Positions 16,124 through 41,826 of a DNA stretch of 51,701 nucleotides are shown piece by piece (position 1 is the stretch's first letter; each line of letters starts with the position of its first letter). The DNA is from a virus. A program made the translations under genes and the position numbers. Location: IMG/VR virus record IMGVR_UViG_3300045988_094113, positions 1 to 51,701 of that record; one strand, written 5' to 3'. A model generated the notes under the pieces. It worked only from the letters and a program-made list of their open reading frames with translations, did not search any database and was not told where the DNA came from.

Positions 16124-18850
16124 ATGAATATGGGTAATTTTTTTGATTTGCATAGGCATACAGAGTACAGCCTATTCGATGGATTTGGAAATCCAAAAGA
16201 TTTAGCAAACATAGCAAAAGAATTAGGTTATAAAGCATTAGGAATAAGCGACCATGGAAGTATCAGTGGATTGATTAAACATTACCAAGCGTGTAATGAA
16301 GTTGGAATTAAACCAGTTATGGGTTGCGAAGTTTATTTCTTGCCAGATTATAACAAAAAGAATGAACAAAGTAAAAGGTACTACCATTTGAATTTGTTCG
16401 TAAAGAATTTGCAAGGATACAAAAATTTATGTCACATTATGACAAAGGCAAATACAGAACAATTTCATTATAAACCAATTGTAGATTTTAAGTTATTAGA
16501 GCAATACAATGATGGATTGATATGTACAACAGCTTGTATAGCTTCGGCAACGTCACAAGCTATTTTAAACGGACATGAAAAGACAGCAGGAAAGTTATTG
16601 GATAAGTTTAAGTCTATATTTAAAAATGACTTATATGCTGAAATACAGCCTTATAAGATAGATAACAAATATACGCAACAGAAAGCAGATTATACATTGA
16701 TGCATTTAGCAAGAGAAAGAAAGATAAAATGCATCCTAACAAGCGATAGTCATTTTGGTAGAAAAGAGGATTTCGATACATATTGTAAAATGCATGAAAT
16801 AGGGAAAACAACACTTGATGTAAAAAATACATACGGTGAACGTTATATGCCAAGTGAGTATGAAATAACAGAAAGATTTGCAAAGATGTACAAAAAGAAG
16901 TTTAAAAACAGTATGCAAGTCGCAGAAATGTTTGCCGACAATATGAAAGAAATCTATAAAAAGGTTGAGGACAATATTCTTGATGGTTTGGAACTTGAGC
17001 TACCAAAAACAAAAAATGGAAAGAAAGAGCTTTTACGACTTACGAAACAAGGTTTAAAAGATAGAGGAAAATATACAAAAGAATATATAAACAGATGTAA
17101 AGAAGAATTGGAAGTTATAAATTATCATGGTTTTGCCGATTATTTCTTGATAGTCCGTGATTATATCAATTGGGCGAAAGAACAAGGAATTGCAGTAGGT
17201 AAAGGAAGAGGCTCTGCTTGTAATTGTTTGGTAGCATATGCGGTAGGAATCACTGATGTAGATAGTATTAAGTATAAACTTGACTTTAGCCGATTTATGC
17301 GAAAGGAAAAGAAAGCTCTCCCTGATATCGACACCGACTTTGAAACGCCACGTAGGCAAGAAGTTATTGATTATGTTATAAAAAAATATCCAAACAAAGC
17401 CATACAGATATGTTCATATGGTATGTATGGTATAGATAACCTTATAAATGATTTAGCAGGCGTATGTGATTTGAAAACAACAAAAGAAGTAGATTATTAT
17501 GAAGCTGATGAAAACAAAAAGAAAGTTGCGGAGATTAAGAGTTTTATAAAAACATTTGAACATGATGGTGAACTTGACTTACAACAAATTAAGAAAGCAG
17601 AACAAACAGAAGAATATAATGAACAGTACGACAATATCATAAAGCATTTTTGCAAGATGTATGGAAAGATAAGATATCTAGGAAAACATGCCGCAGGAGT
17701 AGCAGTAGTTGGAACAGATATAAGTGATTATACTTGTATTATTATGCGTGACAGAAAAACAGGAGCATTAAGCAGTTGTTTTGATAAAGATGATTTGGAA
17801 CATATAAATTGCACAAAATTTGATATGTTAGGTCTTTCCACAATGGGAGAGCTAAAAGAATTGGAACAGCTTACAGGTCATAAAGTAACAGAAGAAGAGG
17901 AAAGTGATAGTAAAGTTTTAAAGAATTTCAGAGATGAAAAAACAGAAGGTATTTTCCAGTTTGAGAAAAGCACACCAAAAAAGATTCTTAGAACAATCCA
18001 TGCAGATTGTGTGGAAGATATTATTGCGGTAAATGCTCTGAATCGTCCTGCCCCATTACAGTTAAAAATGCATGAACAGTTTGCAAGAAACAAAATGTCT
18101 GGAAAGATTGATAAAAGTACACCGTATTACAGATATACAAAAGAAACATATGGAACAATGCTATACCAAGAGCAAACAGTTGAAGTAGCGCAAAAGGTAG
18201 GACATTTAACAGCACAGCAGAGTTTTGATATGCTAAAGATTATGAAGAAAGAAGAAAATTTACATAAACCAGAATATATACCGGTTATTGAACAGATGCG
18301 AAAAGATTTTTATAATGGTTGTAAAAGGGAAGGAATGAGCAAAGGAGAAACAAGTAGATTATGGGCGAGTATGTTAATCTATGGCTTTAATAAAGGTCAC
18401 TCAACCGCATATGCGCTTATTCCAATAGACCAGATGTGGTACAAGGTTTACTATCCAACAGAGTTTTGGTTTACAAAAGTTAAGTTCGCACAGAATGATG
18501 CAGAAGTATATAAATATAGTGAATGTGCTGTAAAGGATGGAGTTGTAGTAATGTTACCACATGTAAATTATAGTGCATTAACAAGTCTTAGAACATATGA
18601 CGGAGAAAATGTAATACAGCAAGGAATAAGCACTATAAAAGGTGTAGGAGAAAAGGCGGCAGAAGCAATAGAACAGGAACGTAAAAAAGGAGCATTTAAA
18701 AGTTATGATGATTTTTATGACCGTTGTAAAGGCAGAGCAGTAACAAGTAGGGTTATTGATATATTAAAAGAACAGGGTGCGCTTGAATTTAACAAAAAGC
18801 GGTATCTATCAAGAGTTGTTAAATATAACAGTAGTTTAATGGTAAGGTGA
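16124..18850 (+). CDS. DNA polymerase III alpha subunit-like (DnaE-type, short form)
   Basis: 908 aa; PHP motif DLHRHTEYSLFDG...SDHGSISG; DIDTDF; HhH GVGEKAAEAI. Confidence 0.9.
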   Translation: MNMGNFFDLHRHTEYSLFDGFGNPKDLANIAKELGYKALGISDHGSISGLIKHYQACNEVGIKPVMGCEVYFLPDYNKKNEQSKRYYHLNLFVKNLQGYKNLCHIMTKANTEQFHYKPIVDFKLLEQYNDGLICTTACIASATSQAILNGHEKTAGKLLDKFKSIFKNDLYAEIQPYKIDNKYTQQKADYTLMHLARERKIKCILTSDSHFGRKEDFDTYCKMHEIGKTTLDVKNTYGERYMPSEYEITERFAKMYKKKFKNSMQVAEMFADNMKEIYKKVEDNILDGLELELPKTKNGKKELLRLTKQGLKDRGKYTKEYINRCKEELEVINYHGFADYFLIVRDYINWAKEQGIAVGKGRGSACNCLVAYAVGITDVDSIKYKLDFSRFMRKEKKALPDIDTDFETPRRQEVIDYVIKKYPNKAIQICSYGMYGIDNLINDLAGVCDLKTTKEVDYYEADENKKKVAEIKSFIKTFEHDGELDLQQIKKAEQTEEYNEQYDNIIKHFCKMYGKIRYLGKHAAGVAVVGTDISDYTCIIMRDRKTGALSSCFDKDDLEHINCTKFDMLGLSTMGELKELEQLTGHKVTEEEESDSKVLKNFRDEKTEGIFQFEKSTPKKILRTIHADCVEDIIAVNALNRPAPLQLKMHEQFARNKMSGKIDKSTPYYRYTKETYGTMLYQEQTVEVAQKVGHLTAQQSFDMLKIMKKEENLHKPEYIPVIEQMRKDFYNGCKREGMSKGETSRLWASMLIYGFNKGHSTAYALIPIDQMWYKVYYPTEFWFTKVKFAQNDAEVYKYSECAVKDGVVVMLPHVNYSALTSLRTYDGENVIQQGISTIKGVGEKAAEAIEQERKKGAFKSYDDFYDRCKGRAVTSRVIDILKEQGALEFNKKRYLSRVVKYNSSLMVR

Positions 18851-26329: not shown

Positions 26330-26374
26330 ATGAAAGCGGATTTAGAAAATGGAACAAAAGTTTTTTGGAGGTAA
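26330..26374 (+). pseudogene. Remnant copy of the 5' end of gene 27236..27862
   Basis: 31 of the first 34 nt are identical to 27236-27269; 14 codons then TAA. Confidence 0.6.
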
Positions 26375-26378
26375 GCAA

Positions 26379-26933
26379 ATGAAATTAACAGCAGAAATTA
26401 TTAAACAGTATCATTTAGATATTTTAAAGTGTGCAACATTAGAAGAAAAACAAAATATGTTTTTAAGTCAAGTGAGAAACAACAAAGATTTTGCAGTATT
26501 ACAGCATAGAAAAATGTGGATATGGATAGCACAGCAATACGCAAAAGGAAGAAAAACATATGTACCAGATTTAAAAAGAGAATATATAAAAGAGTATTGT
26601 TTTAATGCGGTTGTTCTAAATTATTGTTTTTGTTGTGAGTATTCAGCAGATGAAGAATGTTGGTCATCATGTTTAAAATGTCCAATATTATGGACAGATG
26701 GTTATTGTAGTACGAAAAATAGTTCGGAGTATACACAGATGATTGATAAATCGTGTATTTTATGTGATAGTCCAATTCCAGAAGATATTGAAGGGTTTAT
26801 AAAATCGCCATATTTCAAAACAAAAAGACAATATAAATTGGCAAAAGAAGCAATGAAACAAAAGAGAAAATGTGTAAAGCTAGCATACAAAATCTCACAA
26901 TTACCAGAAAGGAAAGAAGTATATGAAGATTAA
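26379..26933 (+). CDS. Hypothetical Cys-rich protein
   Basis: 184 aa; GGAGG RBS. Confidence 0.55.
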   Translation: MKLTAEIIKQYHLDILKCATLEEKQNMFLSQVRNNKDFAVLQHRKMWIWIAQQYAKGRKTYVPDLKREYIKEYCFNAVVLNYCFCCEYSADEECWSSCLKCPILWTDGYCSTKNSSEYTQMIDKSCILCDSPIPEDIEGFIKSPYFKTKRQYKLAKEAMKQKRKCVKLAYKISQLPERKEVYED

Positions 26934-36192: not shown

Positions 36193-36214
36193 ACAAAATA
36201 GCTTAAAATAATTA

Positions 36215-36242
36215 TTGATAAAACAACATGAGCAAAGATAAT
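36215..36242 (+). promoter_or_regulatory. Possible promoter
   Basis: TTGATA-16-GATAAT. Confidence 0.35.
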
Positions 36243-36261
36243 AGAAAAAGGAGATATAAAT

Positions 36262-36726
36262 ATGAAGAATAAAGAAAAATTCGCAAAAGAGATTGTGGAA
36301 ATTGCTTGTGATGGTAATGATATTGCTGTCAATAAAAACACTGGCAAACCAGAAAGTTGCGAGTCCTTAAATTGTAATGAATGCTTGTTTTCATGACACG
36401 GCGGTCAGTCGTGTTATGATGTAATAAGAGAATGGGCAGAATTAGAGTACGTCGAAAAGCCAGTGATAAGCAAAAGGGATAGAATGTTTCTTGATTATAT
36501 AGATAAGAAATTTCATTATCTTGTAAGGACGTGTGTCGGAGATGTTAGACTGTTTTCCATAAAGCCGAGAAAAGGTCAAATGGAATGGAGGTGTAATTAT
36601 CTTTCATTTACTTCTTTATTGGATTCATTTAATATTGATTTACCAATGGTTAAATGGGAGGATAATAAACCATGGTTAATTGAGGACTTGAAGAAGTTGG
36701 AGGTAGTAGAAGAATATGAAATATAA
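36262..36726 (+). CDS. Cys-rich hypothetical protein interrupted by one in-frame TGA (36394-36396)
   Basis: AAGGAG RBS at 36262; 44 codons, TGA, then 110 open codons in the same frame; the downstream part has no RBS of its own. Confidence 0.5.
36392..36418 (+). other. 9-bp hairpin enclosing the in-frame TGA
   Basis: catgacacg-gcggtcagt-cgtgttatg (one G-U pair); locally GC-rich. Confidence 0.7.
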
Positions 36727-36781
36727 AGTTGGAGATAAGGTCAGAGTCAGAAGCGACTTGAAAGCGTATGAAATATGGTAA
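36716..36781 (+). pseudogene. 21-codon gene fragment (MKYKVGDKVRVRSDLKAYEIW)
   Basis: Short ORF squeezed between neighbouring genes. Confidence 0.25.
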
Positions 36782-36969
36782 TAAACAGTTTAATGGATTT
36801 AATTAAAAAGTTGTTTGATGATAACTATGAAAATATTGTTATTATTGATTCAAGCGATAGAGAAAAATATGAAGCAGACAAGATGACAATAAAACAATTG
36901 AAGAGTTACGACGTAAACAAAATAGATGTTATAACAGCAGATGAAGATAAAATATATATTTGTTTTTAA
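36775..36969 (+). CDS. Hypothetical protein
   Basis: 64 aa. Confidence 0.4.
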   Translation: MVINSLMDLIKKLFDDNYENIVIIDSSDREKYEADKMTIKQLKSYDVNKIDVITADEDKIYICF

Positions 36970-37747: not shown

Positions 37748-38800
37748 ATGTCAGAATTGAACATCAATGTTTCTAATCGTTTTGCAAATTTTTTGACAGA
37801 CTGGGAATATGAACAATACTTATTATTTGGTGGGTATGGTTCTGGAAAGTCATATCATGTAGCGTTAAAGATTATACTTAAATTGATGGAAGAAAAAAGA
37901 ACAGCACTTGTAGTAAGACAGGTAAAAGATACAATACGTGAAAGCTGTTTTGCATTATTCAAAGAAATCCTAACAGAATTAGGAATATTATCTTCCAGAG
38001 AAGCACGATACACAAGTAGTACAAATGGTGAAGTAATAGCAATAGCAAGTCCAATGGAGATACGTTTTCCGAATGGTAGCAGGATAATATTCAAAGGATT
38101 GGACAATGTAGAAAAGATTAAGTCTGTACATGGTGTAAGTATTGTATGGATGGAAGAATGCAGTGAGATAACATTTGCGGCATATACAGAGCTTTTAGGG
38201 CGTGTTCGTGAACCAAATAAAACATTACATTTTATAATGACAACAAACCCTATAGGAAAAGAAAATTGGGTGTATGATACATTTTTCGTACATACAGATG
38301 AAAAGGGAAAAGAGCATATAATACAAAGTGAAAAAGAGGTATACAAAAAGCGCACGCTTGTAAATAAAAATAATGGTGTGTACTATCATCATAGTTTGCC
38401 GGATGATAATCCATTTTTACCAGAAAGCTATATAAAACGTTTGGATAGCCTAAAGAATAGTGATATGCATTTATGGCTTGTAGCAAGATGGGGGAGGTTT
38501 GGAGCAAGTGGTTTAAGAGTATTACCAAAATTTACAGTTGCAAAAAATGCAAAAGAGTTTGCAAATGCAGTAAACAATATATCATCACATTACCATTTCT
38601 TCGGTTTAGATTTTGGTTTTGAAACATCATACAATGCACTAATGAGCTGTGCAGTCGATGATACAAACAAGATACTATATATCTATGATGAAGTATATAG
38701 AAATCATATAACAGATAATAACTTTATAAAACTTGACAGTGTACAAAAAGTAAAGGAAAGAGCAGAAAGGTGTGAACAGCCTATTTTCGCAGATGCGGCT
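37748..38800 (+). CDS. terL: Terminase large subunit, exon 1 (ATPase and start of nuclease domain)
   Basis: Walker A GGYGSGKS, Walker B IVWMEE; ends ...PIFADAA at a U that can pair with G in a predicted P1. Confidence 0.85.
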
Positions 38801-39640
38801 AGAAATGTTTTGGTCGCGTAAAATCGCATTAAATACTGGAAACGCTTTAGAGTCGTTAGTACCATAGAGTGATAATCTAACGAATTAGCCAACCAGTAGT
38901 AGTTTAAATAAACGGAGGTAAAATAATATGAAAGTAAAACAAATAAATAAAATAAAAGGATTAGAACATATAAATGATGGGTATTATGTTTCGTATGATG
39001 GCAGAGTTTTTTCGTTGAGAGATAAACATGGAAATGTGAGCATGAGTAATAGACATGAGTTAAAACAATATGAAAAGACAGGTGGTTATTTAAATGTAGC
39101 ATTGACAACGAAACATAATAAAACAAATTATTTGCGTGTTAACAGATTAGTAGCATTAGCATTTGTTAAAGGTAGGACAGCAAAAAGAAAATATGTGAAT
39201 CATATGGATGAAAATAGAAAAAATAATAATGCAGATAATTTGAATTGGGTAACACCAAGAGAGAATAATAATTGGAGTTTAGCGAAAACAGTTTATATGT
39301 ATGATTTGAAAGGGAATTATGTTAAGAGTTATATATCAACAACAGATGCAAGTAATGATGGATTTAATAGAAGTCATGTTGCAAATGTTTGTAGATGTAT
39401 AGAAAGACAACATAAAGGTTATTTATTTTCATACCAAAAGCTTTCAAAAGAACAAGCTATTCAACGACTATCGAAAACCAGTTATATTAGATATCCTAAA
39501 TATGATGGTAAGTAGAGTACACACAAGCGTGTGGAAATGTGCGAAACAGAAATGTTAAGATATAGTCTAATCTGTAGCGAGAGCTACAGCAGTTCATAAG
39601 AGAACGTATATAGAAGTAGCGAACTATATAGAATAAAATG
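38801..39640 (+). mobile_element. Group I intron (840 nt) with a homing-endonuclease ORF
   Basis: Joining the exons restores ADAA/EPKSI in frame; P1 gcggcU with GGUCGC (38812-38817); last intron base is G; multiple hairpins in the 3' 125 nt. Confidence 0.75.
38928..39515 (+). CDS. HNH homing endonuclease (NUMOD4-like N-terminus)
   Basis: GYYVSYDGRVFS; VNHMDENRKNNNADNLNWVTPREN; GGAGG RBS. Confidence 0.85.
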   Translation: MKVKQINKIKGLEHINDGYYVSYDGRVFSLRDKHGNVSMSNRHELKQYEKTGGYLNVALTTKHNKTNYLRVNRLVALAFVKGRTAKRKYVNHMDENRKNNNADNLNWVTPRENNNWSLAKTVYMYDLKGNYVKSYISTTDASNDGFNRSHVANVCRCIERQHKGYLFSYQKLSKEQAIQRLSKTSYIRYPKYDGK

Positions 39641-39946
39641 GAACCAAAATCAATACAGTATTATAGGCAAGAAGGATTTACGATGTATGGTTGTAAAAAG
39701 TATGCAGGAAGTAAGTTACAAAATGTGAAGAAAATAAAAAGATTCAACAAAATCGTATGTTCCCCAAAATGTAAAAACACAATAAGGGAATTAAAAGATT
39801 TAACATATGCAAAGGATAAGCAAGGTAATATTATTTATGATGAATTTAATATTGATGCACATACATTAGATGGTATTGCATACGCATTAAACAATTATAC
39901 AGTAGCGGATTTAAAGGACTATAAGGCAAATACAAAGGTAGGATAG
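39641..39946 (+). CDS. terL: Terminase large subunit, exon 2
   Basis: [13 protein letters not shown]...[13 protein letters not shown]...[12 protein letters not shown] matches the C-terminal nuclease region of PBSX-type terminases. Confidence 0.8.
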
Positions 39947-40560: not shown

Positions 40561-41826
40561 ATGATTAAAGATAACAGAAATAATGAGCAAATATATGGTC
40601 GTAATGATATGATAATGTTAGACCCGAATAACAAAATTTATGGTAGCCTTGGACTCGCTGACAATTATGTTATGAAAACAGAAGAGGGAACAAGGCTGAC
40701 ATTAAGTAATCCAAAGTTGGGTAAATTTGGTGATGTATTAACAGAATTTAATATCTATGGGCGCAGTGAACAGTTTTCGACAACAGGTGTTCAATTGCTT
40801 AACGAAAATATTGAGAGAAATAATAGAGGAGTATTTATAAAAATAAATGGGTCAACTGCTACTTTTAAGGGGATTGTTTCTGATGAAGCTAATATTAGAG
40901 TTAATATTCAAAAAAATATAAAATTAAAACCTGGGAAATATACAGCTAGTTCCTCAAATAAAAAAATAGAAGCTGATTTTTCAGTGGTAAAAGCTAATGG
41001 TGAACAAATATATGATCGTCATATAGAGATTGACGGAACGGAAAAAGAAGTAAGGTTTAGAGTACTGTTTGGGTTAAGACCATCGGCTAAAGGTGATGTT
41101 ATTGACGAAACAACTAATATTATGATTAACGAGGGAGACATAGCACTTCCATATGAACCATACACAGGAGGCAAACCATCTCCATCACCAGAATATCCGC
41201 AGGAGATTAAGAGCGTGGTGAATCCTATAGTTAAAGTAACAAACGAAGATGGAACACAATTTGAGACTGTTACTCTTCCATACACACTCAACGCCATCCC
41301 AGTAGAATCTGGTGGAAATGTAACGATTGACGGTCAGCAGTATATTGCGGATAGAGTTGTGGAAAAAGACGGTGTATTTGGCATCGAAAGAAATACCGCA
41401 ATAGATGCACCAGTGTTAACTAAAACACTAAAAGAAACACCTGATATGAAAGGAAGATTTCTTCAAAATGGTGCATTCAAAAAAACTTTTACATATTCTT
41501 ATGCACCGCTGGTAAATATCGGTTATGGCAAAACATGAGGTATCGCGGGAAGTGTAATTGATAGATGGTTATTCGGAGTAAATAAAACAAATTTGTACAT
41601 ATCACCGCCTAAAGACCTGAATTACACCTCAGAGGATATACTTAATGCTCTAAAAGATTTAGATATAAAAGTTTATGGAGCTTTAGTCGTACCGTTTTTT
41701 GAGCCTTTTACCGGGGATATACAAGCTAAATTGCGAGCCCTTGTAACTTATTATCCAGTAACAATTGTTGAGAATAATTATAACACATGGATGAAAGCAA
41801 CATATAAGTCTACAGAATCAGTTTAA
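40561..41826 (+). CDS. Tail-fibre-like protein interrupted by one in-frame TGA (41536-41538)
   Basis: 325 codons, TGA, then 96 open codons in the same frame; PSPEYPQEI motif; the track start at 41593 is TTG without an RBS. Confidence 0.5.

Follow-up and report, generated by a model that had tools for sequence, protein, structure and literature searches.

The window, meaning the whole stretch of 51,701 bp that was analysed, is a complete phage genome with direct terminal repeats and a G+C content of 32%, in which the plus strand carries nearly all genes. Assembly yields a complete unit with terminal redundancy and high coverage, which suggests that the phage replicates. The gene examined here (36262–36726, plus strand) lies in an accessory stretch, flanked upstream by a ParB-nuclease-like gene and an N6/N4 methylase gene and downstream by two tRNAs and the large terminase gene. 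When the whole window was searched using ARAGORN and Rfam the only tRNAs identified were tRNA-Gln(ttg) and tRNA-Met(cat); neither a suppressor tRNA with the anticodon UCA nor a tRNA-Sec was found, and Rfam gave no family other than the two tRNAs. A host search over genome contigs returned five weak matches to metagenome-assembled genomes, including Lachnospiraceae, Holdemania and a Bacteroidales bin (probably an artefact of binning), and these are too little to name the host. The phage encodes a ChW-amidase endolysin, and since ChW repeats are found in Clostridia the host is presumably of the Clostridia type with a standard genetic code.

The reading frame starts at an ATG at 36262, preceded by the Shine-Dalgarno sequence AAGGAG at 36248–36253 (8 nt before the ATG, as read from the sequence), and runs for 44 codons (36262–36393) to an in-frame TGA at codon 45 (36394–36396), exactly as the preliminary description had reported. 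These 44 codons encode Cys16, Cys33, Cys38 and Cys41 and end before Cys51, the fourth invariant cysteine of the motif as defined by the conserved columns of 112 homologs. The frame past the TGA (36397–36726) was also correctly described as open, and comprises 109 codons, 46–154, followed by a TAA at 36724–36726. It encodes Cys51, a helix spanning residues 51–61 and a β-rich C-terminal domain, and is translated only through UGA read-through or a restart. This downstream part had been described as having no Shine-Dalgarno sequence, which is true of the GTG at 36463; a weak AAGGG precedes an in-frame ATG at 36484. A putative restart ORF of 80 codons (36484–36726) extends from this codon, Met75, to the end of the gene, and the same 80-aa ORF is called from 36484 by gene callers on identical contigs. 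This ORF may be expressed, in which case, going by the structure model, its product would have a C-terminal domain missing its first strand and part of its helix. Elsewhere in the genome TGA is a normal stop, as had been stated: it ends 12 of 78 greedily chosen plus-strand ORFs of at least 70 codons, and the read-through extensions of these other ORFs are almost all 0–11 codons long.

The two halves of the frame had been read as one protein, and the profile comparison confirms this. The 154-aa read-through product matches phrog_22292 with an E value of 1.6e-31, its residues 1–151 aligning with positions 1–151 of the 155 in the profile. Public data contain approximately 1950 homologs of about 150 aa, most of the best 120 coming from human-gut phage contigs; all of these 120 are uninterrupted. 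The invariant residues C33, C38, C41, C51, W58, E60 and E62 are all contained in the read-through translation. The AlphaFold model (pLDDT 87) has an N-terminal helical module containing the four cysteines, which is probably metal-binding, followed by the β-rich C-terminal domain; the N-terminal module also occurs joined to different C-terminal parts, as in Roseburia phage Jekyll. Searches for a function gave no match in Pfam or NCBIfam, nothing significant in a profile search of the PDB (best E value 0.16) and no match at E ≤ 0.001 in a Foldseek search of the PDB, while the matches obtained in BFVD were uncharacterised phage proteins only.

The ancestral state of codon 45 was examined in nine related loci, those sharing the loop motif GH[GA], which were read at the DNA level. 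All nine have GGA, encoding glycine; Cys and TGA, the states raised for this position in the preliminary description, do not occur among them. The sequence TCA GGA CAC is present at the site in L005, L018, L049, L051, L053, L055, L056 and L057, and also in L005–L008 (95% protein identity). In relatives with the motif CLFS-G-H-G the codon is GGA, from which the window differs by a single G to T change at 36394. The L018 locus differs from the window at 4 positions in the 465 nt of the gene, and all four differences are nonsynonymous (Gly45stop, Asp48Gly, Ile95Val and Pro115Leu). Alignment of the 112 homologs places column 45 in a loop of 5–12 residues between Cys41 and Cys51, where the column is a gap in 30, glycine in 25 and otherwise R, D, S, E, N or K; tryptophan does not occur in the Cys41–Cys51 loop of any of the 112. 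Judged from these alignments the stop is a single derived G to T substitution within a loop whose length varies. No other homolog with a TGA at codon 45 was found in IMG/VR, in metagenome contigs or among the best 120 of the approximately 1950 homologs. An exact-pattern search of IMG/VR for the TGA allele gave 0 matches, and nine metagenome-contig matches to a degenerate pattern were rejected as chance, the sequences being unrelated and having many stops in that frame.

The TGA lies within a hairpin, which in the minimum free energy fold consists of a 5′ arm at 36391–36402, the loop GGUCA at 36403–36407 and a 3′ arm at 36408–36419 on the plus strand. The hairpin noted previously is thus real, but its description as a 9-bp stem with a 9-nt loop gives way to a stronger stem of 12 bp, including G-U pairs, and a loop of 5 nt. 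The TGA occupies positions 4–6 of the 5′ arm, confirming its placement there, and the surrounding patch is GC-rich as described, with 12 of the 17 nucleotides at 36397–36413 being G or C compared to 32% for the genome. A 61-nt segment folds with an energy of −23.2 kcal/mol (z = −5.2), and none of 200 shuffled sequences folded as well. A second derived substitution, at 36404 in the loop, changes GAT to GGT (Asp48Gly) and leaves the fold unaffected. The same hairpin is present without the stop in L018, L005 and L051, where it contains one internal G.A mismatch located exactly at 36394; from the ancestral to the window form the energy changes from −14.2 to −18.2 kcal/mol as RNA and from −6.3 to −7.9 kcal/mol as DNA. 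In L049, L053, L055 and L057 the hairpin decays with no compensating changes, and in more distant members of the sub-family the substitutions GGC to GCC and TAT to AAC break pairs, again uncompensated. The hairpin is therefore older than the stop and, given its uncompensated decay, gives no sign of selection on the structure. The codon comparison indicates that it is an accidental by-product of the codons CAC GGC ... TCG TGT, encoding His-Gly ... Ser-Cys. A permissive Rfam search of 36200–36800 gave two chance matches only, to a miRNA and a snoRNA, with E values of 2 or more.

The downstream gene that overlaps this one is likewise disrupted in the strain. In relatives its ATG overlaps the 3′ end of the phrog_22292 gene, and the gene encodes 200–201 aa in L018 and L005, the L018 protein matching phrog_7488. 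In the window approximately 830 bp are missing between ~36759 and ~36771, and a stub of 21 codons remains at 36716–36781 on the plus strand. Other relatives have different genes of 68–164 aa at this slot, including genes for YopX and DUF7694 proteins, and the slot is therefore a mosaic hot spot. In G001, the closest relative genome available and the record from which L018 comes, two genes that are intact in the window are split: the homolog of the 908-aa ORF at 16124–18850, with ~760 bp extra between its parts, and the homolog of the 194-aa ORF at 26349–26933, which is divided into 75 and 139 aa. This phage group is therefore one in which insertions and disruptions occur commonly.

On the GGA codon of the close relatives, the restriction of the TGA to this strain, the deletion of the neighbouring gene and the relaxed constraint seen in the four protein-changing differences from L018, the suggestion that the stop is a recent nonsense mutation creating a pseudogene was upheld. 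We consider it very probable that the TGA is a real, strain-specific nonsense allele of the phrog_22292 gene and that the hairpin is no recoding signal. A recent substitution in one strain would have converted GGA, encoding Gly45, to TGA in a small accessory phage gene. Translation from the Shine-Dalgarno sequence and ATG would then end after 44 residues, before Cys51 and the whole of the C-terminal domain, and the allele would therefore be effectively null. The gene would be in the course of being lost together with the downstream gene that overlaps it, itself deleted in this strain. A strain-specific nonsense allele is an ordinary event, and the main value of the case is as a negative result, in that comparison with relatives exposes a selenoprotein or recoding look-alike as a derived nonsense allele. 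For annotation, 36262–36726 should be marked as a disrupted phrog_22292 gene, and neither as two genes nor as a selenoprotein.

The position of the substitution within the hairpin bears on its mutational origin. The mutated G was the single internal mismatch of the ancestral stem, and its replacement by T creates a pair with the A of the other arm. Ranked by local stabilisation, the change is 10th of the 1395 possible single substitutions in the gene and comes 2nd when only the 91 stop-creating ones are counted. A change of this type is the signature of template switching at a quasi-palindrome, where a nascent strand that has stalled is copied from the opposite arm and an imperfect inverted repeat is thereby made more perfect (PMC7202029); cases mentioned in that source include phage T4 rIIB, yeast CYC1 and the E. 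coli thyA hotspot, from Ripley (1982) and the Lovett laboratory. The hairpin region resembles these systems in having an ancestral imperfect repeat, a substitution at the mismatch to the complement of the opposite arm and a perfect stem that grows from 8 to 12 bp. The ancestral hairpin would thus have been a quasi-palindrome with one G.A mismatch, at which intramolecular template switching during replication would have replaced the G by the complement of the opposite arm. The comparison differs in that the known systems are measured hotspots, whereas here one natural event is inferred by comparison with relatives. A single event is moreover judged after the fact, and a neighbouring G.T mispair of the stem was left uncorrected, which counts against a template switch. 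We therefore propose this origin tentatively, rating its likelihood at somewhat below even. The hairpin probably accounts for how the mutation arose and not for how the codon is decoded, and a mutation at the only mismatch of an ancestral quasi-palindrome would make a tidy natural example of a probable template switch in a gut phage.

A second in-frame TGA was identified in the same strain at 41536–41538, in a plus-strand gene at 40561–41826, where it replaces the TGG of the invariant Trp326. This gene has thousands of database homologs, most of the closest being uninterrupted and about 421 aa long, and in the aligned uninterrupted 421-aa homologs the TGA falls on the invariant tryptophan of the motif GYGKT-W-GIAGS. 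The RNA around 41536 folds no better than shuffled sequences (z = 0.23), giving no local structure at this site, and no motif or structure shared between the two TGA sites was found. A scan of the plus strand for TGAs that join long open stretches in the frame of a gene gave only 36394 and 41536, a third match at 15656 being due to an alternate frame. In the comparison with G001, which covers the window from ~17 kb to ~51.3 kb (35 kb compared), none of the other window ORFs was flagged as interrupted in frame by a stop; the second gene was not flagged in this comparison, the region being too diverged. Recurrent truncation of the second gene by TGA in other strains was considered and rejected, as the variant P0161 proved to be a frameshift ending at a TAA.

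If decay were random, it would be mildly surprising for an otherwise intact genome to have two nonsense codons that are both UGA; for two nonsense changes, the chance that both would be TGA is roughly estimated at 10–15%. The pair raises the alternative that the phrog_22292 gene remains partly functional through passive UGA leakage or UGA suppression at the level of the host. Either near-cognate tRNA-Trp or a suppressor or variant tRNA of the host would then read both UGAs, inserting tryptophan at position 45 here and restoring the wild-type tryptophan in the second gene, and such suppression could be an early step toward TGA recoding. This reading draws on the identity of the two stops, one of them exactly at an invariant TGG codon, on the lack of any further split ORF across the 35 kb or on the plus strand, and on the completeness of the genome at 65–88x coverage. 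The base following the UGA at codon 45 is moreover a C, and UGA-C is the weakest termination signal in E. coli, so that some full-length product may arise by leakage. Background read-through of UGA in bacteria is attributed to endogenous tRNA-Trp(CCA) and is raised by variant tRNAs (PMC13092985), and closely related phages can differ in the coding of TGA (Borges et al., bioRxiv 10.1101/2021.08.26.457843).

Against UGA suppression, such codons number only two in the genome, the phage carries no suppressor tRNA, and TGA ends 15% of the ORFs, which is undepleted compared to the 2.7% to which TGA stops fall in pre-recoding relatives of recoded phages (Borges et al., bioRxiv 10.1101/2021.08.26.457843). 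None of the 112 homologs has a tryptophan in the loop that contains codon 45. Deletion of the downstream partner gene and the exclusively nonsynonymous substitutions fit loss of function, the second gene of another strain is truncated by a frameshift and not by a TGA, and the presumed Clostridia-type host would use the standard code. It is thus unlikely that the phrog_22292 gene is kept partly functional in this way, and we regard as distinctly unlikely the specific case in which the host decodes UGA appreciably, for example through a variant tRNA-Trp or a weakened RF2, with both TGAs tolerated or neutral. The second TGA, at a conserved tryptophan codon, leaves a small chance of UGA suppression in the host; if true, UGA decoding by the host would mean that TGA recoding is seen here at its very beginning, in a standard-code, Clostridia-type siphophage that has yet to acquire a suppressor tRNA. 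An outright change of genetic code was rejected, TGA still being a frequent stop in a genome with two in-frame TGAs only and no suppressor tRNA.

The window shares with the stop-recoded gut phages (TGA to Trp, TAG to Gln; Borges et al.) a low G+C content, an in-frame TGA near the packaging and lysis region and, at one site, the replacement of a tryptophan codon by TGA; it differs from them in the number of such codons, in lacking a suppressor tRNA and in the continued use of TGA as a stop. A likeness also exists to the A1 protein of the RNA phage Q-beta, in that UGA is the stop most easily misread by tRNA-Trp. The read-through stop of Q-beta A1 is conserved and functional and lies at the end of a complete coat gene, whereas the stop here interrupts a domain and is not conserved.

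In a further alternative the hairpin would stimulate programmed read-through or attenuation, setting the ratio of the 44-aa to the 154-aa product. The hairpin is strong, it surrounds the stop, and the UGA-C context is favourable. However the stop is absent from all relatives, whereas programmed events are conserved, and the hairpin is present in relatives without the stop and lost in others with no compensation. Known stimulatory structures start approximately 8 nt beyond the stop codon, which in this gene is instead enclosed by the 5′ arm, and considering the footprint of the ribosome the helix would already be melted when the codon is decoded. The second TGA, in addition, is in unstructured RNA. 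The hairpin-driven read-through or attenuation envisaged in the preliminary description was not sustained, and is very unlikely compared with a derived nonsense allele.

Whether the base at 36394 is real depends on the contigs that carry it. Six contigs of 51.6–51.7 kb are the recorded sources of the 44-aa product and likewise of the truncated product of the second gene. Five loci fetched from the six contigs (L064–L068) derive from MEGAHIT (k119, k127), SPAdes and Logan assemblies; the aligned loci L064–L066 match the window with 100% identity over the overlap, and L064 and L065 carry both TGA contexts. Coverage stated in the contig names is 65x and 88x. Run ERR589811 is indicated by two of the names and sample SAMEA2737816 by one, both within PRJEB6997, and all the contigs with the TGA allele probably represent one phage population in one person. 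A consensus base-call or assembly error, the true base being G, would gain from the possibility that these contigs share one read set and from the position of the site in a hairpin with GGC motifs, a context prone to sequence-specific Illumina errors. Such errors are strand-specific and in the minority and should lose the consensus at this depth, and the different assemblers recovered the same base. A stop is also present at the second site in the same genome, which is unstructured. An assembler artefact is unlikely as the source of the TGA, and an error in the base itself is highly improbable.

Selenocysteine at codon 45, with the hairpin acting as a bacterial SECIS element, was also considered. 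The locus resembles the E. coli fdhF type in having an in-frame UGA at a stable stem-loop with a small apical loop starting GG in a Cys-rich gene, and UGA-CAC-GGC matches the start of the fdhF element. The loop GGUCA opens with two G residues, and with the 12-bp stem it falls within the bacterial SECIS model, which specifies a loop of 3–9 nt with an early G and an upper stem of 4–16 bp. However, Cys/Sec pairing is the main signature by which selenoprotein genes are recognised (PMC13188914), and no such pair exists here, the close relatives having glycine in a column that is otherwise variable or gapped. The loop had rightly been judged too close to the UGA for a SECIS, although the gap is 6 nt and not 4: it begins at 36403, compared to the 16–37 nt from the UGA in the model (PMC13188914). 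With the UGA in the A site the footprint of the ribosome would place the whole 5′ arm inside it, leaving nothing to present to SelB, and CAC GGC is ancestral and plainly encodes His-Gly. With glycine in the homologs, the wrong spacing, a TGA in one strain and in no other homolog found, no Rfam match and a phage that lacks tRNA-Sec and other Sec machinery, the locus is unlike bacterial selenoproteins and the probability of selenocysteine here is negligible.

Several minor observations were made in the same region and across the window. Through the G to T change, AGGACA in the region 36393–36420 becomes ATGACA, which makes a better −35-like hexamer, and a TG-n-TATGAT follows 16 nt on. In principle this could allow a transcription start inside the broken gene; the pair is a consensus match only, with 13 such sites in 1.8 kb compared to 10.4 expected. 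The antisense strand contains dozens of stop-free stretches of 40–220 codons, which are most likely a by-product of the composition of the coding strand, and minus-strand ORFs in mechanical ORF lists of this genome should not be taken as genes. The large terminase gene, terL (37748–38821 plus 39638–39946), is split by an insert of ~850 bp at 38795–39643, for which no Rfam intron family reached the gathering score. The insert carries an HNH endonuclease ORF (38928–39515), and in L005 and L051 terL is contiguous, joining window position 38794 to ~39641–39644.
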